Origin: Paraflavisolibacter caeni
Lineage (GTDB): Bacteria; Bacteroidota; Bacteroidia; Chitinophagales; Chitinophagaceae
Direction: 5' to 3'
DNA: 24,000 nt
Assembly (NCBI RefSeq): GCF_025628885.1
Contig: NZ_JAOTIF010000001.1
Coordinates: 763,751-787,750, forward strand
Shown: positions 8,508-24,000 of the stretch, piece after piece
How positions within the stretch are numbered: position 1 is the stretch's first letter
Layout of the letters: the number at the start of each line of letters is the position of its first letter
Translations under genes and position numbers: made by a program
Notes under the pieces: model-generated
Database searches by the model: none
The model's input: the letters and a program-made list of their open reading frames with translations, nothing else
Told to the model about the DNA's origin: nothing

Positions 8508-9332
8508 TCATTCAGCAACAATGAATGTAATGGGTTGTTTCCGGTAAGCATTTACGTTACGTCCGTTTTGAATGGCAGGCGTCCATTGTGGTCCTCTTTT
8601 GATGACCCGTATAGCTTCTTCTTCCATTCCATAACCATGGTTCGTTAATGCTTTTACATCACTGATATTTCCTTGCTTATCTACGATGAATTGAACAACA
8701 ACGGTATAAGATCCGTTAGGTGCTCCGTTTTCAGCCGGCGTATTGCTATTCAGTTTGTTTTGCAGGTAGCGTGACCAGGCACTTAAACCACCTGGGAATT
8801 CAGCTTCTATCTCAACTTTGTCGAAAATTTCTGGTTCATTTTCTTTTGCTTTGGGAACTTCCACTACATTCTTATTATCGTCTATAACTGGTGGCGTTGC
8901 AAGACCCGGATCTTTAGTACCTTTTATATTTACTACGTCAATCTTTGTATCAGCCAGTGTTGTGACATCAGGTGGAAGATCTTCTTTCTTCACCTGATCG
9001 TCTTCTACAATTTTAATATTTGTAAGCTTAGTATGTTCCACTTGCGGTACTTCTTGTTTTGGTGGTGTAATAGGAGGGGGATCCGGTTTCTTATCATCTG
9101 TTTTAATTTCTTCTATCACAACATCTCTTATATCAATTTTTGCATCATTTTTCTCTATCGGTTTAGCAAAAGATGCAATAAACAGAAATGCAGCAAGACT
9201 GCCAGTAATGGCCAAAGCAGTAATAATGCGGCTGTTGTATGTCTTTCTTAAATTGTAAGCTCCGTAATCTTTGTTCCTGTTCTCAAAGAGAATGTCAAGA
9301 ATGTCGGCTTTTAAAATTTTGGTTGCGTCCAT
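8508..9332 (-). CDS. tonB: Energy transducer TonB family protein
   Basis: N-terminal cytoplasmic segment plus one TM (IITALAITGSLAAFLFI), a Pro/Lys-rich spacer (KKPDPPPITPPKQEVPQ), and a C-terminal TonB domain (AEFPGGLSAWSRYL..., GSYTVVVQFIVDKQGNISDVKAL..., EEAIRVIK...W.PA.QNGR.V). Confidence 0.85.
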   Translation of the reverse strand: MDATKILKADILDILFENRNKDYGAYNLRKTYNSRIITALAITGSLAAFLFIASFAKPIEKNDAKIDIRDVVIEEIKTDDKKPDPPPITPPKQEVPQVEHTKLTNIKIVEDDQVKKEDLPPDVTTLADTKIDVVNIKGTKDPGLATPPVIDDNKNVVEVPKAKENEPEIFDKVEIEAEFPGGLSAWSRYLQNKLNSNTPAENGAPNGSYTVVVQFIVDKQGNISDVKALTNHGYGMEEEAIRVIKRGPQWTPAIQNGRNVNAYRKQPITFIVAE

Positions 9333-9466
9333 ATGTTAAGTTTATTATTGAGATATAACTTTTGTTTTTTTCCATAAACCTTTCAAGAATTTTTTTAATT
9401 ACTGCATGTGCAATCAACGGTTATACAAGCCAGTTTTCGCTTAGCTGTTTATAATAGACTATTGTG

Positions 9467-9474
9467 TAATTTTG
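9467..9474 (+). promoter_or_regulatory. Candidate Bacteroidota sigma-A -7 box (TAnnTTTG) for the bio operon
   Basis: TAATTTTG is an exact match to the TAnnTTTG consensus, about 125 nt upstream of the bioB ATG. I found no clear -33 TTG at the canonical spacing. Confidence 0.35.
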
Positions 9475-9598
9475 ACACAGCTGGAATTAGTAATTTATTT
9501 TTTCTACCTGCCATTGATTTATACATGTACTTTTTCTTCATGCGTTTAAGTTGCCAGGAATCCCTTTACTTTTGCTCCCTTTAAAATATCCTGAAACG

Positions 9599-10597
9599 AT
9601 GACCATACGCAATAACTGGACGCTCCAGGAAGTATCCGAAATTTATAACCGGCCTTTATTGGACCTGGTTTTCCAGGCAGCACAGGTGCACAGAGAAAAT
9701 AATGCTTATAGTGAAGTGCAGGTGAGCAGCCTTATTTCAATAAAAACAGGTGGATGCACGGAAGATTGTGCCTACTGTCCACAGGCTGCCCGGTATAATA
9801 CTGATGTCCATGTACATGCGCTGATGCCGCTGGAAAAAGTAGTAGCGCATGCACAGAATGCAAAAGCCAATGGTGCCTCCAGGATCTGTATGGGCGCATC
9901 ATGGAGAGAAGTACGGGACAACCGTGATTTTGACAGGGTACTTGAAATGGTAACCGCTGTCAATGAAATGGGCGTTGAAGTATGCTGCACGCTGGGTATG
10001 TTGACGTATGAACAGGCGGAAAAATTAAAGGCTGCAGGTTGTTTTGCTTACAACCATAATGTAGATACCTCGGAAGATTATTACACAGAAATCATCTCCA
10101 CCCGTACCTATGATGACAGGCTGCATACATTAGAGAACGTACGTAAGGCTAAACTGACTGTATGCAGTGGTGGTATTATCGGGTTGGGTGAAACCAATGA
10201 AGACCGGATCAAGATGTTGCACACACTAGCCACCTTACCGGTACATCCGGATTCAGTTCCCATCAATGCATTGGTACCAGTAAAAGGGACTCCATTGGAA
10301 CACAACAAGCGGGTAGGTATCGATGAAATGCTCCGCATGATCGCGACTGCAAGAATCATCATGCCCAAAAGTGTTGTGCGCCTTTCCGCAGGCAGAAATG
10401 AAATGAGCCTGGCGGAGCAAGCACTTTGCTTTATGGCGGGTGCCAATTCGATCTTTTCTGGCGAAAAGTTGCTCACGACTCCGAACCCCGACGTCAACGA
10501 AGACAGGCTGATGTTCCAGTTGTTGGGGCTAACACCCAGGGCTCCGTTTAAGGATGTACAGCAGGAACATGCTCATTTGGTGTCAGAAAAGGGATGA
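9599..10597 (+). CDS. bioB: Biotin synthase (radical SAM)
   Basis: [10 protein letters not shown] is a CxxxCxxC radical-SAM motif. Further Cys/Arg positions ([26 protein letters not shown]) fit an auxiliary-cluster-type BioB. I prefer the ATG at 9599 ([12 protein letters not shown]) over the track's TTG at 9551. Confidence 0.93.
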
Positions 10598-10604
10598 GCG
10601 CGCC

Positions 10605-11738
10605 ATGATCCACACTCATTTGATAGATGAATACCTGTCTCAATCTTTGCAGAAAAGAGAGCAGGAAGGATTGCTGCGTCAATTAGCCTGCAATGAGGGG
10701 CTGATTGATTTTTGTTCCAATGATTATTTGGGATTGGCACAATCAAACTTATTGAGCCTGGATGGTACCGGATCACAAGAAGAGATGGCCTCCGGATCAA
10801 CAGGTTCCAGGCTTGTTTCCGGCAACTCTCCGTTAGCTGAAAAAACAGAACGCATAGTTGCCGGCTTTCACCATGCAGAAGCTGCACTTTTGTTCAATAC
10901 AGGTTATATGGCCAACCTGGGTTTGTGTTCCTGCATTGCCGATAAGCATAGCGTATTTATCTACGATGAACATATTCATGCAAGCATTATTGATGGCATG
11001 CGCCTAAGCCTGGCAAAACGCTTTAAGTTCAAACACAATGATGTGGATGATCTTCGCAAGAAGTTGAAGCAGGCGGAAGGAAAAGTATATGTTGTTATTG
11101 AATCGCTCTACTCAATGGATGGTGACCTGGCGCCTTTGCAGGAAATTTCAGATGTATGCAAAGAGCATAAGGCTGCATTGATCGTAGACGAAGCTCATGC
11201 TGTTGGTATCTATGGTGATCAGGGCAGGGGCTTGGTATGTCATCATCAGTTGGAAAACGATGTATGGGCACGCATCATCACCTTTGGCAAAGCACTTGGT
11301 TGTCATGGGGCCGCAGTGGTGGGTAGTTCCCTGCTGCGTGATTATTTGATCAATCATGCCCGCTCGTTTATTTACACAACTGCTATGCCTCCACATGCCT
11401 TTATAGTGATTCAAAGGTCATACCAGGAAATGGCAGTTGCACAAAGGGAAAAGCTGTTTGGGCTCATTCATCATTTTCAAAAAGTTGCCAGGGAGACATC
11501 AATAGAAGATGTACGCTTCCTGCTCAATCCTTCTCCGATACAGGGTGTTATCGTGCCGGGTAATGAACGGGTGAAACGGCTGGCCGAGTACGTAAGGCAA
11601 CAGGGTTTTTTTATGAAAGCTATTTTGTCGCCTACTGTGCCGGCAGGTTCCGAAAGGTTACGCATTTGCCTGCATGCTTTTAATTCTTGCAGGCAAATTG
11701 ATCAATTATTGACAGCCATAAAATTATTTTTAACATGA
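10605..11738 (+). CDS. bioF: 8-amino-7-oxononanoate synthase
   Basis: PLP alpha-oxoamine synthase blocks: FCSNDYLGL, GSTGSRLVSGN, SMDGD, VDEAHAVG, TFGKALG (Lys). I prefer the ATG at 10605 (MIHTHLIDEYL), because the track start at 10554 overlaps the bioB 3' end. Confidence 0.9.
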   Translation: MIHTHLIDEYLSQSLQKREQEGLLRQLACNEGLIDFCSNDYLGLAQSNLLSLDGTGSQEEMASGSTGSRLVSGNSPLAEKTERIVAGFHHAEAALLFNTGYMANLGLCSCIADKHSVFIYDEHIHASIIDGMRLSLAKRFKFKHNDVDDLRKKLKQAEGKVYVVIESLYSMDGDLAPLQEISDVCKEHKAALIVDEAHAVGIYGDQGRGLVCHHQLENDVWARIITFGKALGCHGAAVVGSSLLRDYLINHARSFIYTTAMPPHAFIVIQRSYQEMAVAQREKLFGLIHHFQKVARETSIEDVRFLLNPSPIQGVIVPGNERVKRLAEYVRQQGFFMKAILSPTVPAGSERLRICLHAFNSCRQIDQLLTAIKLFLT

Positions 11739-12379
11739 ACCTGGTAGTTGCAGGCATCCATACAGGTATAGGTAAAACTGTTTGTTCTGCAGTCATGGTC
11801 CAGGCACTTGGATATGATTATTGGAAACCAGTGCAGGCCGGAGACCTTGATGCATCTGATAGTTTGTTTATCAAAAAGAATGTTGTCAATAATGATATCA
11901 ATATTCACCAGGAAGCATTTTGCCTGACACAAGCAGCATCTCCGCATTATGCTGCAAAAGAGGATCAGGTTTCTATTACGCTGGAAGGGATTACGATACC
12001 CTCTTCGGATCTTCCTATTATTGTAGAAACAGCTGGTGGTGTGATGACACCTTTGAGTGAATCTTTATTGAATATTGATTTGATCAGACATTTAAATCTT
12101 CCTGTAGTATTGGTTTCCAACAATTACTTAGGAAGCATCAATCATACTTTACTGAGTGTACAGGCATTGAGTCTTGCAGGTGCACGCCCACTGGGCATTG
12201 TGTTTAGTGGTGAAGAGGTTTTGTCTACAAGAGAATTTATTCTTCAATATACAGGTTTGCCTTTGCTCTTTTCCATCCCGCAGTTTGAACAATTGAACAA
12301 GGAAACCATTGCTGAATTTGCTACATCTATTTCTGGCGATCTAAAAACAAAGCTTTATGAACTGGGCAGAGAAAGATAA
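11735..12379 (+). CDS. bioD: Dethiobiotin synthase
   Basis: N-terminal P-loop VAGIHTGIGKT, internal ETAGG, about 214 aa. The ATGA overlaps the bioF stop. Confidence 0.88.
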   Translation: MNLVVAGIHTGIGKTVCSAVMVQALGYDYWKPVQAGDLDASDSLFIKKNVVNNDINIHQEAFCLTQAASPHYAAKEDQVSITLEGITIPSSDLPIIVETAGGVMTPLSESLLNIDLIRHLNLPVVLVSNNYLGSINHTLLSVQALSLAGARPLGIVFSGEEVLSTREFILQYTGLPLLFSIPQFEQLNKETIAEFATSISGDLKTKLYELGRER

Positions 12380-13646
12380 AGCGTACATATGGCATCCATT
12401 CACACAGATGAAGTTAGCCGGTGAGGCTATTCATATCGAAAGAGCAGAAGGTTGTTACCTGTATAGCTCTAATGGAGATCAATACCTGGACGGCATTTCA
12501 TCCTGGTGGGTCAACATACATGGACATGCCCATCCTTACATAGCAGAGAAGATTGCACAGCAATGTCTTCAGTTAGAGCATGTGATCTTTGCGGGGTTTA
12601 CCCATACGCCTGCTATTAAACTTGCTGAAAAATTATTAGCACTATTACCAGGAAGTTTTTCCAAAGTATTTTATTCTGATAATGGTTCCACTGCAGTTGA
12701 GGTGGCCTTGAAAATGGCGTTGCAGTACTGGTATAATAAGGGTGAGATTGGAAAGACTAAGATCATCGCGTTTGAAGATGCTTATCATGGAGATACATTC
12801 GGCGCTATGTCTGTAGGGGCAAGAAGTGTATTTACTGCAGCCTTCCAGGAGTTGTTGTTTGATGTAGTGCATATCCCTCTTCCTTCTGATGACAATATTG
12901 ATCAATGCACAGAAATGCTGCAGCAAATGACTTCGAAAGGAGATGTGGCTGCTTTTATTTTTGAACCCCTGGTATTGGGGGCAGCAGGCATGAAGATGTA
13001 CAAGCCGGAACATTTGGATATGCTACTTGCTGTGGCCAAAAGAAATGGTGTTTTATGTATTGCAGATGAAGTGATGACAGGCTTCGGGCGTAGCGGGAAG
13101 AACTTTGCTATTGAACACCTGGTTCATAGACCGGATATTATTTGTTTATCCAAAGGGATTACCGGTGGCTTTTTGCCTTTGTCTGTAACTATATGCACTG
13201 AAGATATTTATCAGGCTTTTTATTCCGATGAAGCAACGAAGGCATTGTTTCATGGGCACTCTTATACTGCTAATCCGGTAGCCTGTGCAGCAGCCCTGGC
13301 GAGTATGGAAATATTGACGCAGCCGGAGACGCAGCAACAAATCAGGCTGATTGCGCAGGAGCATCATTCCTTTCTTCAAAATATCAAGGATCATCCTTTC
13401 ATTAAAGGTGCGCGGCAGACAGGAACTATACTGGCACTGGAAATCAAGACGACAGAAAATACTTCTTACTTTAATTTGATCAGGGATGATGCTTACAACT
13501 TTTGCCTTGGTAAAGGCGTGTTGTTACGTCCGCTGGGAAACATCATTTATTTCATGCCGCCATATTGTATTACACAAACTGAATTGCAACTTGTATATGG
13601 TGTAATCATAGACATGTTGCATTATTTACAAGAAAAATATACTTAA
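12357..13646 (+). CDS. bioA: Adenosylmethionine-8-amino-7-oxononanoate aminotransferase
   Basis: Class-III aminotransferase blocks: IWHPFTQMK, SSWWVNIHGH, YHGDTFGAMSVG, ADEVMTGFGRSGK, LSKGITGG, HGHSYTANP. It overlaps bioD by 23 nt. Confidence 0.92.
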   Translation: MNWAEKDKAYIWHPFTQMKLAGEAIHIERAEGCYLYSSNGDQYLDGISSWWVNIHGHAHPYIAEKIAQQCLQLEHVIFAGFTHTPAIKLAEKLLALLPGSFSKVFYSDNGSTAVEVALKMALQYWYNKGEIGKTKIIAFEDAYHGDTFGAMSVGARSVFTAAFQELLFDVVHIPLPSDDNIDQCTEMLQQMTSKGDVAAFIFEPLVLGAAGMKMYKPEHLDMLLAVAKRNGVLCIADEVMTGFGRSGKNFAIEHLVHRPDIICLSKGITGGFLPLSVTICTEDIYQAFYSDEATKALFHGHSYTANPVACAAALASMEILTQPETQQQIRLIAQEHHSFLQNIKDHPFIKGARQTGTILALEIKTTENTSYFNLIRDDAYNFCLGKGVLLRPLGNIIYFMPPYCITQTELQLVYGVIIDMLHYLQEKYT

Positions 13647-13663
13647 GTTTTAAAACACTAATC

Positions 13664-14272
13664 ATGCAAGCACTATTACATAAAATCATTGAGCAGCCTG
13701 AACTTCATGCTTATTGGCTGAATACATTGTCCATGATGGAAAATGTAGGAGCCAAAAAGATCAAGAAGTGTGAGCACCCGATTTTCGTTAATGAAGTGAT
13801 CTTAAAACATGCATCAGAAGAAGCCAGGCATGCTTTTTACTTGAAAAAGCAAATACAAAAGATCCGCAAAGATGCATGTCCTACTTATGAATGGCAGTAC
13901 CTGTTAGCTCCTAAATCAAGTTATGCTTATTTGAATCAATTGGACATTGATGTTTGTCGCTATTTAAAATCGAAGCATGAGTTGAAGCATGAGCGTTTAA
14001 AATATGCAGCTTACCTGTTGGTGACCTATGCCATTGAAGTAAGAGCCGATGAATTATATCCCATTTACCAGGATGTGTTACGTGCATATAAGAGTCCTGT
14101 AAGTGTGCGCAACATCATTGCTGAAGAACAGAATCACCTGGAAGAAATGGAAAAGCAACTGAAAGCTTTTTCAAGTGAGTGGGAAGAAATGTGCCGTGTA
14201 GTTCGTGAAATTGAAAGCAAGTTACATAGTGTGTGGATCGAGAATTTACATCAAGAGCTCGGGTTGTCGTAG
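13664..14272 (+). CDS. Ferritin-like diiron-carboxylate protein of unknown function; fifth and last cistron of the bio operon
   Basis: 202 aa and predicted to be helical. Signature: E26 (MMENVGA), E53xxH56 (SEEARHAF), E125 (YAIEVRA), E155xxH158 (AEEQNHLE). It starts 17 nt after the bioA stop and is followed by a terminator hairpin. Confidence 0.7.
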   Translation: MQALLHKIIEQPELHAYWLNTLSMMENVGAKKIKKCEHPIFVNEVILKHASEEARHAFYLKKQIQKIRKDACPTYEWQYLLAPKSSYAYLNQLDIDVCRYLKSKHELKHERLKYAAYLLVTYAIEVRADELYPIYQDVLRAYKSPVSVRNIIAEEQNHLEEMEKQLKAFSSEWEEMCRVVREIESKLHSVWIENLHQELGLS

Positions 14273-14297
14273 TAATGCTTCCCAATCCGGATAAAGT

Positions 14298-14333
14298 ACA
14301 ACCCTGGCCTCCGGGAACAGATGCCAGGGTTGT
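14298..14333. terminator. Hairpin between the convergent bio and thi operons (probable bidirectional terminator)
   Basis: acaaccctggc (14298-14308) and gccagggttgt (14323-14333) form a perfect 11-bp stem with a 14-nt loop. It lies between the stops at 14272 (+) and 14339 (-). Confidence 0.6.
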
Positions 14334-14338
14334 TACAT

Positions 14339-15469
14339 TCAGGAAAAGAGTTTATTGGACTGGAAGTTTTTATCCCAATCTTTCCATATTGGTTCATAAC
14401 CTTGCTTTTCAATGATTGTAGCCATTTCTGCGGCAGATCGCTCGTCGCTGATCTCGAACTGTTCCAGAGTGTCGGGGTCAACAGAATAGCCACCAGGATT
14501 GGTTTTAGAGCCTGCACTTATAGTGGTTGTTCCCAGTTTTAATATATGGTTCCTGAATTTTTCAGTCTCTCTTGTTGATATAGATATTTCTACATCTTCA
14601 TTGAGTAATCTGTAGGCACAGATCAACTGTACCAGCTCCCTGTCTTTGATCAGGTGGTCTGTAATATCAACACCTTCTGCAGGCCTGATCCGCGGGAAAG
14701 AAATGGAATATTTTGTCTGCCAGTATCTCTTCTGCAAGTAATCCAGGTGCAAAGCACAAAAGAAGCTATCCGTGCGCCAGTCTTCAAGTCCCAGCAACAC
14801 ACCAAGGCCAATTTTATGCATGCCTGCCCGGCCTATACGGTCTGGTGTTTCCAGTCGGTAATAGAAGTTAGACTTCTTGCCTTTCAAATGGTAATTCCTG
14901 TATGCTTCTTTGTGGTAGGTTTCCTGGTACACCAGCACAGAGTAAACACCTGCTTCATGAAGGGTTTTATATTCATCCTGCTCCAGTGGTTGCACTTCGA
15001 TGGATATGTTGGCAAAATGAGGCTTGATGATGTCTATCGCTTTTAGAAAATAATCCACATGCACGGTATGGTTGGCTTCGCCTGTGACCAGTAAGATATG
15101 CTGAAAGCCGTGCTTTTTGATCTCATTGATCTCCTGTAAGATCTCTGCGGCAGAAAGGGTTTTGCGTTTGATCTTATTGTTAAAGCTAAAGCCACAGTAG
15201 GTGCAAATGTTATTACATTCATTACTCAGGTACATGGGTGCGAAGAGCTGAATGGTATTGCCAAAACGTTTTTGGGTTGTTTGGTGGCTTATTTGGGCCA
15301 TTCGCTCCAGGTAGGGTTCAGCGGCAGGGGAGATCAAGGCTTTGAAGTCTTCCAGTGTACGCCTGGGGGCAGCTAAAGCAGCTTCCACATCTGCTTCCGT
15401 TTTCAGCAAAATAGATGAAGCAACTTCATCCCAGTTATAGCGGTCGAAATGCTCTTTAAAGGTCATCAT
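14339..15469 (-). CDS. thiH: 2-iminoacetate synthase (tyrosine lyase, radical SAM)
   Basis: [10 protein letters not shown] radical-SAM motif, 376 aa, adjacent to and overlapping thiG. Confidence 0.9.
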
Positions 15470-16232
15470 ATAAGAATTCAGTTAATGGACTTGAGGCAAT
15501 GGCACCTTTTATTGCTTTAGACAGTTTGGCCTCATAGGCCATTCTGCCGGCTTCTACAGCCAGTTTAAAAGCTGAAGCCATTTGTACAGGGTTGCCTGCC
15601 ACAGCTATGGCCGTATTAACCAGCACTGCATCAGCTCCCATTTCCATTGCTTTAGCCGCATGGGAAGGTGCGCCAATACCCGCATCAATAATTACAGGTA
15701 CATTACTTTGTTCAATGATGATCTCTAAAAAATCAAATGTTTTTAACCCTTTGTTACTGCCAATAGGTGAGCCCAATGGCATCACTGCAGCTGTTCCTGC
15801 TTCTTCCAACCTTTTACACAAAACCGGGTCGGCATGTATATAAGGGAGAACAATAAATCCCAGTTTTGCCAATTCTTCAGTGGCTTTTAAAGTTTCGATG
15901 GGATCAGGCAATAGGTATTTAGGGTCTGGATGGATCTCCAGCTTTACCAAGTTTGTTTCCAATGCTTCCCTGGCCAGTTGGGCAGCAAATACTGCTTCTT
16001 TAGCATTGCGTACTCCGGAAGTATTGGGCAGTAAGTTGATGTGCGGATGATGCAGATGTGCCAACAGAGAATCTGTTTCTGTTTCGAAATCGATCCGTTT
16101 CATGGCCACAGTAACCAGTTCTGTTCCTGAAGCCAGTACAGCTTCTTCCATTCTTTGTGGAGAGCCGAATTTGCCGGTGCCTAAAAAAAGCCGTGAATTG
16201 AACTGGCAATTACCTATTGTAAGCTTTTGCAT
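15456..16232 (-). CDS. thiG: Thiazole synthase
   Basis: Blocks: [63 protein letters not shown]. Confidence 0.93.
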
Positions 16233-16851
16233 ACAAGGAAGAATTTAGTTGTTGAACAATTTGTTTTTTATGGTCGTGATGAGTGATGGCTCCTGAAATG
16301 GCTATGCCGTAGAGGCCTGTTTGCATGATGGACTCAACATCTTCAGGCAGTATGCCGCCAATTGCATAAAGAGGTATACTGATACCCTCTGCGTTCATTT
16401 TATTGATCAATATTTCATAACCTGGTAACCCTAAAACAGGACTTAGCTTTTCCTTGGTCTTCGTAAAACGGAAAGGCCCTACACCTACATAATGACAGCC
16501 TTCCCGGTAGCGCTGCAGCACATCTTCAAAAGTATTGGCAGTGCCTCCGATGATCATTTGATCACCAACGATCTTTTTTGCTTCCGCTACAGGCATATCC
16601 TGCAAACCCAGGTGTACGCCATCTGCATGCACAGCCTTTGCAATGTCGGCGTGGTCATTTACGATGAAAGTGGCTTCGAGATCATAACATAATTTTCTTG
16701 CAATTGCTGCTACTTTCAGGAGTTCTGATGGTTGGGCCTTTTTAAAGCGCAACTGAATCCAGGTGCAGCCACCATCCAGTGCTTCCTGGATATTTTTTAT
16801 TTGCTCATTGGCTGTATTACCTTGCGATATGTATTGAAGTTTAGAAAACAT
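16210..16851 (-). CDS. thiE: Thiamine-phosphate synthase
   Basis: Blocks: [62 protein letters not shown]. Confidence 0.88.
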
Positions 16852-17596
16852 GATAACTTAAGAGTGAAGAGTTACTTAATAAAACTTTTTCCGTATAACT
16901 TTTTGCTTTTCTGCAGGCAGTGATCAAATCATTGCCTCTGGCTAGTTGTGCCGCGATCGCTGAAGAAAGAATGCAGCCAGACCCATGTTTTGGAAATATT
17001 TTCGAAGTGCCGGGATATAGCCTGGTCACTTCTGTTTTCATAAAAAGGTAATCAACGCCGGGTTCATCTTCATTATGGCCACCCTTTAATAAAACATTGC
17101 AGTATTGAGACAGTTTTTTTGCCGCTTCTATGGCGTCTGTCTCATTTACCAATTGAACGATTTCTTTGTAGTTTGGCGTGATCAATTCCAAATTCTGTAA
17201 TAGCTGGTACAATAGGATTTCATCAACCCCCTGCTGCCAAAAGCTGAATTCAGTTGTTGAGCGAATGACAGGATCCACAATGATCTTGATGTTGCTGCTT
17301 TTTTGATGAATCACAGAAACTAACTGGTGTAGTGATCCAAGGTTTTGTACGATACCGATCTTCACAGCGGCAACCTCGTAATGGGAAAGCATCCTGGATA
17401 CTGCATCCAGGATGTTTATATCTTTTTCCCATCGTATCGAGTAAAAAGCATTTTCTGTTTGCACAGTTTGGGCCGTTGATATGCCTAAGCCATACACTTC
17501 ATGTTGCTCGAAGACCTTGATGTCGGCAAGCAGACCTGCACCCCCACAGGGATCCAGGCCTGCAATACTCAACACTATAGGACGATTGAATTCCAT
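16841..17596 (-). CDS. thiD: Hydroxymethylpyrimidine/phosphomethylpyrimidine kinase
   Basis: Blocks: VLSIAGLDPCGGAGLLADIKVF, AVKIGIV, ITPNYKE, LLKGGH, and the GSGCILSSAIAAQLA anion-hole region. Confidence 0.9.
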   Translation of the reverse strand: MEFNRPIVLSIAGLDPCGGAGLLADIKVFEQHEVYGLGISTAQTVQTENAFYSIRWEKDINILDAVSRMLSHYEVAAVKIGIVQNLGSLHQLVSVIHQKSSNIKIIVDPVIRSTTEFSFWQQGVDEILLYQLLQNLELITPNYKEIVQLVNETDAIEAAKKLSQYCNVLLKGGHNEDEPGVDYLFMKTEVTRLYPGTSKIFPKHGSGCILSSAIAAQLARGNDLITACRKAKSYTEKVLLSNSSLLSYHVF

Positions 17597-18174
17597 GTTT
17601 TTTTTATTTTTCGGAAACTTTTAACCGGATCATTGTTTTGCCAGACTGAACCTAATATTGCCACACCATGAAAGCCCATTTGCAAGGCATCCTCCAGGTT
17701 GTTTTCCCGGATTCCTCCAATCGCTATCAACTTTGTTCCTGGTGAAGGAAGCTTTGTTTCTTTTGAGATCGTGGATTCATATCCTTGCTTTGATATGCTG
17801 TTAAATACAGGGCCCAAAAAAGCATACGCAAAACAGCAGGATAAATTATCTGCTTCCTCTACCTGGTGGATAGAAGTCGTTAAGAGAAAACCACCCTGTT
17901 GTAATGCCTGCCATTCCACCTGGGTACTGCATCTTCTTTTTGACTCAGTATAGTGTAAGCGCATCGTCCCCAACATGCTTGCCAGATGATGATGCGCATG
18001 CAAGGATATTTTGCTCCGATGTTCAGGATCTACCTGTTCCACTAATTGTTGCAATGCTGATGCAGTTGCTTCCGGTTTGCGCAAATGGAAGATTTCCATG
18101 CCTTCATTAAATAAGGCATTGATCATCTCTGCTTCATTTTGGATCATTGCTGCATCAGAAATTACAATCAACAT
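17575..18174 (-). CDS. ThiE/TenI-family protein (second thiamine-phosphate-synthase-like paralogue)
   Basis: The 200-aa form starts at the ATG at 18174, 1 nt after the thiC stop (tga c atg). Blocks: IFHLRKPE, MRLHY, FLGPVFNSISKQGY, LIAIGGI, GVAILGSVW. The track's longer form (to 18342) would overlap 167 nt of thiC. Confidence 0.7.
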   Translation of the reverse strand: MLIVISDAAMIQNEAEMINALFNEGMEIFHLRKPEATASALQQLVEQVDPEHRSKISLHAHHHLASMLGTMRLHYTESKRRCSTQVEWQALQQGGFLLTTSIHQVEEADNLSCCFAYAFLGPVFNSISKQGYESTISKETKLPSPGTKLIAIGGIRENNLEDALQMGFHGVAILGSVWQNNDPVKSFRKIKKTWNSIVL

Positions 18175-18175
18175 G

Positions 18176-20264
<2,089 letters not shown>

Positions 20265-20323
20265 TCCGGTATAAGGTTAAAAATTGACACTTTAGGAATG
20301 GACGAAACGAAGTAATATGGATC

Positions 20324-20395
20324 ACTTTTCCCTTCGCTGGCATTATCCAGATCAGGTTCGAGGGTATCATCTCAGCCTTTCGGCACCCCTAAAGT
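20324..20395 (-). promoter_or_regulatory. TPP (THI-box) riboswitch aptamer
   Basis: The minus-strand RNA reads ACUUUAGGGGUGCCGAAAGGCUGAGAUGAUACCCUCGAACCUGAUCUGGAUAAUGCCAGCGAAGGGAAAAGU. It has the canonical GGGGUGC, CUGAGA, ACCCU, AACCUGAUCUGGAUAAUGCCAGCG and AGGGA elements. P1 is ACUUU/AAAGU. Confidence 0.95.
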
Positions 20396-20400
20396 TGGCA

Positions 20401-22540: not shown

Positions 22541-24000
22541 ATGAAAGGCTCCGACATCAGCTTTTTGTTCGATACCGCCCCGGCATTGCACATGTTGCGC
22601 TTGCGCAATGCGCATTGGGTACTGCCTTTTTTGTACAAGGTGTTCAAGGAAAAATCTGTTTTCTCCCTGCCTGAATTTTCATTGACTACACTTCTAGCCG
22701 AAGCCCTTAGTTCTCAAAATGAAGGCGTAGAAGACTGGGAAGAAGCGAAGATCGAGTTTGGTGAGGATGAGGAAAGCCGCGCCCGCAAATACCTGCTCAA
22801 CTGGGTGCAAAAACGACTGTTGCAGGACTTTCCCGCAGCTGACGGCACAACCATGTACCAGCTGAGTGCACATACGGAAAAGGTGTTCCAGTGGTTGCAA
22901 ACCCTTAGCCGTCGCGACTTCGTGGGAACGGAGAGCCGGTTTAAAATGCTGTTCAACTCACTCCATGATATAGTTGAAAAAACTGAAGACGACCGTTTCA
23001 AACGCCTGGAAGAATTAAAGAGCAAGCGTGCCGACATCGACAGGGAAATCAACGCCCTGGAGCATGGTGCTTCCGTGGAAGTATACAGCAATGCCCAGGT
23101 AGCAGAACGCCTTGAAATGTTTACCCGCCTCTGTTACGAGCTGCTGGGCGACTTCCGCGAAGTAGAAGACAACTTCAGGCAGATCCACCGCAACATCGTT
23201 GAACAACACACGAAAGCCGAAGTGAATAAGGGCGCTATTGTTGGCTATGCCTTCGACGCCTATGATGCCCTGCGCAACAGCAACCAGGGACGCAGTTTCT
23301 ATGCTTTCTGGGACTTCCTGATTTCAAGAGCAGGGCAGGTGGAATGGCGGCAACTGACCAGCCAGTTATTGGAATTGCTCCAATTGAGGAATATTGATTC
23401 TGATTACTACTTCCTGGACAACATCAAATCCATGTTGCTGGAGCAGGGACGTGTGGTGTATGAGGCCAATGATAAAATGGCAGAAAAATTAAGCCGTATT
23501 ATCACGGAAAAGGAAATGGCGCAACACAAAAGACTGCGGCAGCAAATTGGAGGGATCAAGGAACTGGTGCTGCAATTAATGGACAACGATAGCGTTCCCT
23601 GCAGTATTCAGGTGGAAGGAGCTGCAGAAATCAGGTTGTCCATGGACAGGAGGCTGCAGCAGGAACCTAAAAACATGCCTTCAATGGTAAGGCAACCGGT
23701 AAGCGGTAGCGAGACGATTGAAGATATGGCTCGTTTCAGCCGCTTATTGAATGCTCCTTTTGTGGATAAGAAAAAATTGTGGCAGAACGTAGAAGATATA
23801 TTAAAAGATAAGCATACAGCTACTTTAAGAGAGATCATCGAAATCACCGGACTGGAATATGGCGTGGCAGAAGTGGTTGCCTACTTCTCTTTTGTTAAAG
23901 ACAAAGGAGGCAAGGCGCAGATCATGAGTAGCATGAGCGAACATATTGCCTTGAACAGCGAGAGTAACAAGTTTATAGAAGTACCCTATTTGTTGTTCAA
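22541..24000 (+). CDS. jetA: DUF3375/JetA-like protein (kleisin-like subunit of Wadjet/Mks-type SMC defence complexes), 3' end beyond the window
   Basis: I translated this frame by hand from the ATG at 22541 (in-frame TAA at 22532-22534 upstream) to base 24000. There are 486 codons with no stop, so the ORF is missing from the track. Blocks I recognise as DUF3375-like: LRNAHWVLPFLYKVF, RDFVGTESRFKMLF, LLGDFREVEDNFRQIHRNI, SNQGRSFYAFWDFLIS. Four minus-strand track ORFs here are its shadows. Confidence 0.75.
   Translation, partial: MKGSDISFLFDTAPALHMLRLRNAHWVLPFLYKVFKEKSVFSLPEFSLTTLLAEALSSQNEGVEDWEEAKIEFGEDEESRARKYLLNWVQKRLLQDFPAADGTTMYQLSAHTEKVFQWLQTLSRRDFVGTESRFKMLFNSLHDIVEKTEDDRFKRLEELKSKRADIDREINALEHGASVEVYSNAQVAERLEMFTRLCYELLGDFREVEDNFRQIHRNIVEQHTKAEVNKGAIVGYAFDAYDALRNSNQGRSFYAFWDFLISRAGQVEWRQLTSQLLELLQLRNIDSDYYFLDNIKSMLLEQGRVVYEANDKMAEKLSRIITEKEMAQHKRLRQQIGGIKELVLQLMDNDSVPCSIQVEGAAEIRLSMDRRLQQEPKNMPSMVRQPVSGSETIEDMARFSRLLNAPFVDKKKLWQNVEDILKDKHTATLREIIEITGLEYGVAEVVAYFSFVKDKGGKAQIMSSMSEHIALNSESNKFIEVPYLLF

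Follow-up and report, generated by a model that had tools for sequence, protein, structure and literature searches.

The gene following bioBFDA in Paraflavisolibacter caeni encodes a probable orthologue of the diiron oxygenase BioE

The gene that follows bioB, bioF, bioD, and bioA in Paraflavisolibacter caeni very probably encodes a clear orthologue of BioE, as judged from its sequence, and its product would then supply the pimeloyl thioester used by BioF. The gene was found in a 24-kb stretch of the genome (24,000 nucleotides, referred to here as the window). The initial annotation of this DNA suggested that the protein could provide an O2-dependent route to the pimeloyl moiety analogous to that of BioI. 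This suggestion is supported by analogy: the function has been demonstrated in orthologues, and the window protein shares 51% identity with the BioE of Elizabethkingia meningoseptica (EmBioE). The initial annotation also held that the protein was not recognizable as any named Bio protein. This view has to be revised, as the family already carries the name BioE (PMC12704756, PMC12915131). The BioE reading is not new for this lineage either: homologues have been described in Weeksellaceae, Flavobacteriaceae, Chitinophagaceae, Sphingobacteriaceae, and other families, so that Chitinophagaceae is already among the published BioE families (PMC12915131).

BioE was reported in December 2025 from E. 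meningoseptica and Chryseobacterium indologenes as a ferritin-like non-heme diiron oxygenase that binds ~2 Fe per monomer (PMC12704756). Its substrates are C14, C16, and C18 acyl thioesters of CoA or ACP, which are cleaved to pimeloyl-CoA/ACP and a Cn-7 acid; stearoyl substrates, for example, yield pimeloyl-CoA/ACP and undecanoate in vitro (PMC12704756). The reaction depends on O2 and on a reductant. BioE complements bioC, bioH, and bioC/H deletions of E. coli, and it does so only with oxygen (PMC12704756). In EmBioE, the replacement of any one of six residues (E26, E53, H56, E125, E155, and H158) abolishes activity (PMC12704756). The function was extended to a protein of Chlamydia psittaci (CpBioE), which carries an N-terminal extension and shares ~40% identity with EmBioE (PMC12915131).

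The sequence of EmBioE was recovered by way of a homologue in Empedobacter falsenii, from which a homologue search led to 209-residue proteins of E. meningoseptica. One of these (P0289) has all of the residues named in the paper, namely F24, E26, R31, K32, E53, H56, R87, E125, E155, and H158. The contigs encoding it carry a divergent 495-residue gene with GntR and aminotransferase domains (BioL), then bioE-bioF-bioD, and then bioB-bioA. Because both the named residues and the published gene layout match, P0289 is either EmBioE itself or the version of another strain, at 90% identity or more. The window protein (202 aa, compared to 209 aa for EmBioE) aligns with it over residues 1-199 with 51% identity and zero gaps (E 2e-70). 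Since the alignment is gapless from residue 1, the six ligands have identical numbers in the two proteins. The pairing of residue 1 with residue 1 also backs the start codon called for the window gene. In the published work, a BioE is recognized by >40% identity and >85% coverage to EmBioE (PMC12915131), and the window protein, with 51% over 199 of 202/209 residues, lies above both values. It is also closer to EmBioE than is the validated CpBioE (~40%).

The putative diiron ligands of the window protein are E26, E53-A-R-H56, E125, and E155-Q-N-H158. Their codons, calculated as 13664 + 3(n-1), lie at 13739, 13820/13829, 14036, and 14126/14135, and both the diiron-carboxylate pattern and the codon positions given in the initial annotation are reproduced by translation and arithmetic. 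Conservation was examined in 138 full-length representatives of clusters formed at 50% identity. The six ligands are kept in 135-138 of the 138 relatives, so the loss of ExxH ligands in orthologues, which had been named as an outcome that would speak against the proposal, is not what is observed. Ten further residues are near-invariant in this sample (H15, G29, H49, E52, R55, Y117, R127, Y132, Y135, and E184).

The residues of the acyl channel are largely shared as well. In CpBioE, this channel is formed by W33, L37, L40, I48, L105, V135, I139, L146, Y147, Y150, and L205 (PMC12915131). These positions were mapped from the published numbering, without a CpBioE alignment, by a constant 15-residue offset that is seen at all six ligands. 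By this mapping, nine of the 11 residues recur unchanged in the window protein (W18, L22, I33, L90, V120, I124, L131, Y132, and Y135), M25 is a conservative replacement, and the last position (L205) maps unreliably. A search for the CpBioE residue pattern among the cluster representatives gave no exact match.

The residues of EmBioE that have been tied to phosphopantetheine contact are F24, R31, K32, and R87 (PMC12704756). The corresponding residues of the window protein are M24, K31, K32, and Y87; only K32 is identical, and the other three represent the differences F24M, R31K, and R87Y. These positions vary across the family, with Y, L, F, or M at position 24, R, K, Y, or E at position 87, and R31 in 104 of the 138 relatives. 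The differences at positions 24, 31, and 87 imply that the carrier preference of the window protein may differ from that of EmBioE. It is possible, though not the reading we favor, that the specificity of the window protein has diverged within the BioE family. Like CpBioE, it might be restricted to acyl-ACP, or it might favor another chain length; it would still feed biotin synthesis, but with a substrate range and an oligomeric state unlike those of EmBioE. The three substitutions are consistent with such divergence, as is the lack of BioL in the window. However, no sequence feature decides carrier preference, and a diverged specificity would refine the BioE explanation rather than contradict it.

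The genomic setting of the window gene, designated bioE, is summarized in Table 1.

Table 1. Coordinates of the biotin genes and adjoining features in the window.
Feature	Coordinates	Strand	Description
Region upstream of bioB, intergenic	9333..9598	+	contains TACTTTTG at 9567-9574
bioB, biotin synthase, first cistron	9551..10597	+	Pfam Radical_SAM and BATS
bioF, 8-amino-7-oxononanoate synthase	10554..11738	+	Pfam Aminotran_1_2, 1e-41; position conserved in related loci
bioD, dethiobiotin synthetase	11735..12379	+	Pfam AAA_26, 2.5e-50
bioA, adenosylmethionine-8-amino-7-oxononanoate aminotransferase	12357..13646	+	Pfam Aminotran_3, 8.7e-105
bioE	13664..14272	+	202 aa, ATG start; ferritin-like diiron oxygenase, predicted pimeloyl-ACP/CoA producer
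GC-rich hairpin	14296..14338	unspecified	free energy -27 kcal/mol; z-score -3.1 vs shuffles
thiH, convergent neighbour	14339..15469	-	

The ORF calls of bioB, bioF, bioD, and bioA overlap by 4 to 44 nt (4 nt between bioF and bioD), and the only gap is found at the bioA-bioE junction, where 17 nt separate the end of the bioA ORF (13646) from the start of bioE. The ORF calls and the Pfam matches of the four upstream ORFs agree with the initial annotation, which had described a 202-aa ORF 17 nt past bioA as the fifth same-strand cistron of a bioB-bioF-bioD-bioA series. The true start of bioB is likely to be the ATG at 9599 (MTIRNNW...). We propose that one transcript covers bioB-F-D-A-E, with bioE as its last gene. 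It had also been stated that the window encodes no known pimeloyl-forming family. The Pfam matches confirm this: BioC, a BioH-type esterase, BioW, BioZ, and BioI are all missing from the called ORFs of at least 100 aa in the 24-kb window.

Is the association with biotin genes a general property of the family? Homologues of the window protein fall into 3,054 clusters at 90% identity (E <= 0.001) and 555 clusters at 50% identity, and in a collection with one genome per species at least 594 stretches encode a relative. The neighborhoods of the best 80 of these loci, with flanks of up to 10 kb, were compared. In 70 of the 80 loci, which represent several Bacteroidota families, the homologue adjoins bio genes. 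The bioA gene is located directly upstream on the same strand in 69/80 loci, usually 0-5 nt away (median gap 3 nt). The most common arrangement is bioA-bioE only (53/80), followed by the arrangement of the window, with the full bioB-F-D-A-E series on one strand (11/80), bioA-bioE with further bio genes nearby (5/80), and bioE-F-D-B-A in an Empedobacter of the Weeksellaceae (1/80). Loci with the full operon come from Chitinophagaceae, Ferruginibacter, Saprospiraceae, and unclassified Bacteroidota. In the remaining 10/80 loci, most of which belong to Larkinella and Flavihumibacter, no bio gene was called at a distance of up to 6 kb from the homologue, and flanks of up to 10 kb gave no bio match either. 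The linkage is therefore strong, yet not universal.

Some of the related loci display other recurring genes. In Mucilaginibacter, a cation-efflux gene, a NUDIX gene, bioA, and bioE form a conserved unit. Genes located upstream of bioB in related loci were considered as hidden BioC or BioH candidates and rejected; they comprise panB, a nitronate monooxygenase-like gene, a gene with a Fib_succ_major domain, and two genes without a Pfam match. Likewise, a Pfam search of nine ORFs adjoining bio genes in related loci returned no methyltransferase or alpha/beta-hydrolase family.

The window protein goes unrecognized by the curated family libraries. The exact sequence of the window protein is already present in public records under the label "hypothetical". 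Among the matches listed, nearly all homologues named by their source are hypothetical, and a few are called rubrerythrin or bacterioferritin. Neither the 2025 copy of Pfam nor the June 2026 release of NCBIfam contains a BioE model. For the window protein, no Pfam family is matched at or above its cutoff, with Rubrerythrin and COQ7 appearing below threshold only, and NCBIfam (June 2026) gives nothing relevant. The Rubrerythrin match (PF02915; E 0.0055) scores 17.5 bits, where 22.8 would be needed, and is confined to residues 41-89. Even at E <= 10, MiaE (PF06175) is not among the matches of the window protein, and the aldehyde-deformylating oxygenase family (PF11266) gives no Pfam match. When 50 family members were searched at E <= 0.01, Rubrerythrin was found in 17/50, MiaE in 1/50 (E 0.0041), and PF11266 in 1/50 (E 0.0011). 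Rubrerythrin and bacterioferritin, the labels attached to some relatives, and MiaE were rejected as identities of the protein, as no such family is matched at its cutoff and the match to EmBioE is far stronger.

An AlphaFold2 model of the window protein, built with 58 homologues, is all-helical with seven helices (pLDDT 94.5, pTM 0.90). A comparison of the model to the PDB with Foldseek gave no significant E-value. The best TM-score (query) of 0.60, with a probability of 0.97, was obtained for the ADO-like structures 5ux2_A and 8fhc_A, followed by MiaE (2itb, 6zma, and 8afj; 0.58-0.59) and AetD (8ji5; 0.58). All matched structures share only 12-16% sequence identity with the window protein. 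Searches of PDB sequences with phmmer and with a family profile returned no match above threshold for the window protein; in the profile search, ADO chains appeared at E 0.36-0.63. The model thus predicts a ferritin-like helical-bundle fold that is most similar to ADO-like proteins by TM-score, in agreement with the BioE authors, who named cADO as the closest known structure (PMC12704756).

The structural similarity raises the question of whether the window protein belongs to another ferritin-like diiron family, such as MiaE, aldehyde-deformylating oxygenase, COQ7, or AurF, with its position next to bio genes being coincidental. MiaE fits the model about as well as the ADO-like proteins do, and isolated sub-threshold Pfam matches to MiaE, Ald_deCOase, COQ7, and AurF occur among the relatives. 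However, the suggested check for a confident match to a family that has an established role elsewhere, such as MiaE, gave none at the cutoffs of Pfam and NCBIfam. No curated cutoff is attained, and the matched structures have little sequence identity to the window protein, which instead aligns without gaps to EmBioE over nearly its whole length. A linkage to bio genes that is retained in 70/80 loci across several Bacteroidota families also argues against coincidence. Membership of another diiron family is accordingly extremely improbable.

A second alternative concerns the step of the pathway. The window protein could be a ferritin-like accessory factor for a late biotin step, for example one that delivers iron to BioB or repairs its cluster in the manner of BsaP, which is a mycobacterial BioB helper. 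Presumed co-transcription with bioB, the weak sub-threshold similarity to Rubrerythrin in the window protein and in 17/50 members, and the observation that bioA rather than bioF is the closest and most frequent neighbor are all compatible with such a role. Nevertheless, the 51%-identical orthologue makes pimeloyl-CoA/ACP in vitro and replaces BioC/BioH, which act before BioF. The conserved residues of the acyl channel also speak against an accessory factor, and a late-step role is described in neither PMC12704756 nor PMC12915131. An accessory function is thus very unlikely, and production of a pimeloyl thioester by a BioE orthologue remains the preferred reading.

How would a BioE orthologue feed biotin synthesis? 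The pimeloyl thioester is the substrate of BioF. In the proposed mechanism, two iron ions would be held between four core helices by E26, E53, H56, E125, E155, and H158, and the tail of a long-chain (C14-C18) acyl-ACP and/or acyl-CoA would be bound in a hydrophobic channel over the diiron site. With O2 and an external cellular reductant, several cycles would functionalize C7/C8 and cleave the C7-C8 bond, releasing pimeloyl-ACP/CoA and a Cn-7 fatty acid. The pimeloyl thioester would then be passed to BioF, which is encoded three genes upstream of bioE. We infer the chemistry, oxygen dependence, and substrate range of the window protein from its orthologues. If the BioE reading is true, bioB-F-D-A-E can be read as a full dedicated pathway from a fatty acyl thioester to biotin, with the first step filled.

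Comparison with known systems places the window protein among the BioE enzymes. It resembles the BioE proteins of E. meningoseptica and C. indologenes in its location in a biotin cluster and its predicted ferritin-like helical fold, and it shares the six ligand numbers with EmBioE. The gene order is different: in Elizabethkingia, bioE is the first gene of bioEFD and bioBA is separate, whereas bioE of the window comes last, after bioBFDA. EmBioE has been characterized experimentally, whereas the window protein is known from its sequence and a model. With C. psittaci BioE, which was compared via published residue numbers, it shares the six ligands at an offset of 15 residues, nine of 11 channel residues, and a locus without BioL; the differences include the N-terminal extension of CpBioE, a protein with ~40% identity to EmBioE.

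Functionally, the closest counterpart outside the family is BioI (CYP107H1) of Bacillus subtilis, a heme-thiolate cytochrome P450 that carries out the O2-dependent C7-C8 cleavage of long-chain acyl-ACP to pimeloyl-ACP. BioI works like BioE, but the two are unrelated in sequence and fold, and BioI is an analogue rather than a homologue. Both enzymes replace BioC/BioH in E. coli (PMC12704756). The cyanobacterial aldehyde-deformylating oxygenases (cADO, PF11266) share with BioE the ferritin-like diiron fold, the E...ExxH...E...ExxH site, and a channel for a fatty chain; however, cADO removes the aldehyde C1, while BioE cleaves in mid-chain and produces two carboxylates. MiaE, the tRNA-(ms2io6A) hydroxylase, is a ferritin-like diiron protein of similar size that acts on a different substrate and is not known to be linked to biotin genes. 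With BioE, the known routes to the pimeloyl precursor number four, and the enzyme is a rare case of a diiron protein that performs a ten-electron mid-chain cleavage. Biotin auxotrophy will be wrongly predicted for Bacteroidota if metabolic reconstructions leave BioE out of account.

In Elizabethkingia, bioE has BioL as a divergent neighbor. BioL is a MocR-type repressor with a GntR helix-turn-helix and an aminotransferase domain. With EmBioL as the query, tblastn found no BioL in the window, even at E <= 1, and none of the 80 related loci gave a match over the full length. The weak matches that were obtained all lay in one unrelated gene of 397 aa and covered only its aminotransferase domain. 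Since BioL is missing from all 80 loci, the BioE-BioL module as published may be peculiar to Elizabethkingia and Chryseobacterium, and control without BioL seems to prevail in the relatives that were examined. The BioE locus of Chlamydia is also without BioL (PMC12915131), so the presence of BioL does not define BioE. As a tentative and rather doubtful extension, most BioE-bearing Bacteroidota may control a potentially toxic BioE without BioL, through another regulator or through its last place in the operon, and the homologues of Larkinella and Flavihumibacter that are not linked to bio genes may cleave acyl chains for a purpose other than biotin synthesis.

The operon promoter presumably lies within 9333..9598. 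This placement is based on the Bacteroidota -7 promoter motif, TAnnTTTG, and on the element listed for this region in Table 1. No inverted repeat that could serve as an operator candidate was detected in 9320-9610, upstream of bioB. The window and the other loci for which the region upstream of bioB was available share no common 8-mer except the AT-rich words ATTTTAAA and AATTAAAA.

At the other end of the cluster, a hairpin occupies the space that separates the stop codons of bioE (14272) and the convergent thiH (14339). Its core stem of 11 bp is formed by ACAACCCTGGC and GCCAGGGTTGT at 14298-14308 and 14323-14333, as had been noted earlier for the 3' side of the ORF, and the folding energy and z-score corroborate it. 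The stem extends to about 14296-14338, is 11-13 bp long, and is GC-rich. The hairpin lacks a T-run, and a scan for consensus terminators did not pick it up. Its position suggests that it probably functions as a shared, bidirectional terminator of bioE and thiH.

Apart from one 125-aa ORF without a Pfam match, the other ORFs of at least 100 aa in the window were assigned by Pfam. They include nuoH-N, sodC (Cu/Zn superoxide dismutase), a tonB-like gene, an NAD-binding oxidoreductase of the 6-phosphogluconate-dehydrogenase type, a BNR-repeat protein, and the start of jetA. The window also contains a thiamine operon, extending from thiC to thiH, which lies behind a TPP riboswitch.

Gene neighbourhoods were compared across the 80 best-matching loci that encode a homologue of the window protein (L001-L080), out of at least 594 stretches encoding a relative. 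A same-strand block consisting of a cation-efflux (CDF) transporter, a NUDIX hydrolase, bioA, and bioE was conserved in about 47 of these loci. Most of the ~47 lacked bioB, bioF, and bioD near the block. Ten loci, namely L013, L015, L021, L036, L037, L051, L059, L064, L066, and L074, had no bio gene anywhere in their fetched flanks, which extend at most 10 kb to either side of the bioE homologue. These loci come from Larkinella, Flavihumibacter, and related MAGs, and their BioE homologues are 57-61% identical to the window protein. In Flavihumibacter, the gene sits after genes that, judging from their ORF translations, are dTDP-rhamnose-type sugar genes.

The published MocR-type repressor of BioE, BioL, whose gene adjoins bioE in Elizabethkingia, had no homologue in the window or in the fetched flanks of any of the 80 loci (0/80), including that of the Weeksellaceae member Empedobacter falsenii. 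The region upstream of bioB in the window revealed neither an inverted repeat nor a conserved operator. The probable start codon of bioB is the ATG at 9599. About 25 nt ahead of it, at 9567-9574 (+), the sequence TACTTTTG matches TAnnTTTG, the -7 promoter motif of Bacteroidota.

A BioE model is absent from both Pfam (2025 copy) and NCBIfam release 20.0 (June 2026). Relatives of the window protein are named in their source records as "hypothetical protein", "Ferritin-like domain-containing protein", "rubrerythrin", or "bacterioferritin". Among the proteins of the representative library (50%-identity cluster representatives), P0133, a predicted protein of 1,911 aa, carries a BioE-like domain at its N-terminus. 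Over residues 4-169, this domain shares 55% identity with the window protein. P0133 could be a real fusion, or it could be an artefact of gene calling or assembly. Two of the 80 loci, L039 and L050, carry Bacteroidota-type bioBFDA-bioE or bioA-bioE arrangements on contigs whose source labels are a Bifidobacteriaceae MAG and a Janthinobacterium lividum MAG. It seems likely that these taxon labels reflect misbinning, a point of possible relevance to the reported occurrence of BioE in Burkholderiaceae.

Features in the window and in a representative homologous locus
Feature	Position	Strand	Evidence or remark
CDF-NUDIX-bioA-bioE block (example)	L016, 6933-10597		similar loci in Mucilaginibacter and relatives
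Thiamine operon: thiC, TMP-TENI-like ORF, thiD, thiE, thiG, thiH	window, 14339-20023	-	
TPP riboswitch	window, 20312-20400	-	Rfam RF00059, 69.1 bits
jetA-like open frame, at least 486 aa	window, 22541-24000, runs past window end	+	DUF3375 and PADLOC JetA

In the window, the bio operon faces a thiamine operon that is preceded by a TPP riboswitch on the same strand. The two operons converge, and the hairpin at 14296-14338 is common to both. The open frame at the window end has a DUF3375 match with E 1.6e-92, and its match to the PADLOC JetA model reaches E 2.7e-180. This frame probably opens a Wadjet anti-plasmid system extending past the window.
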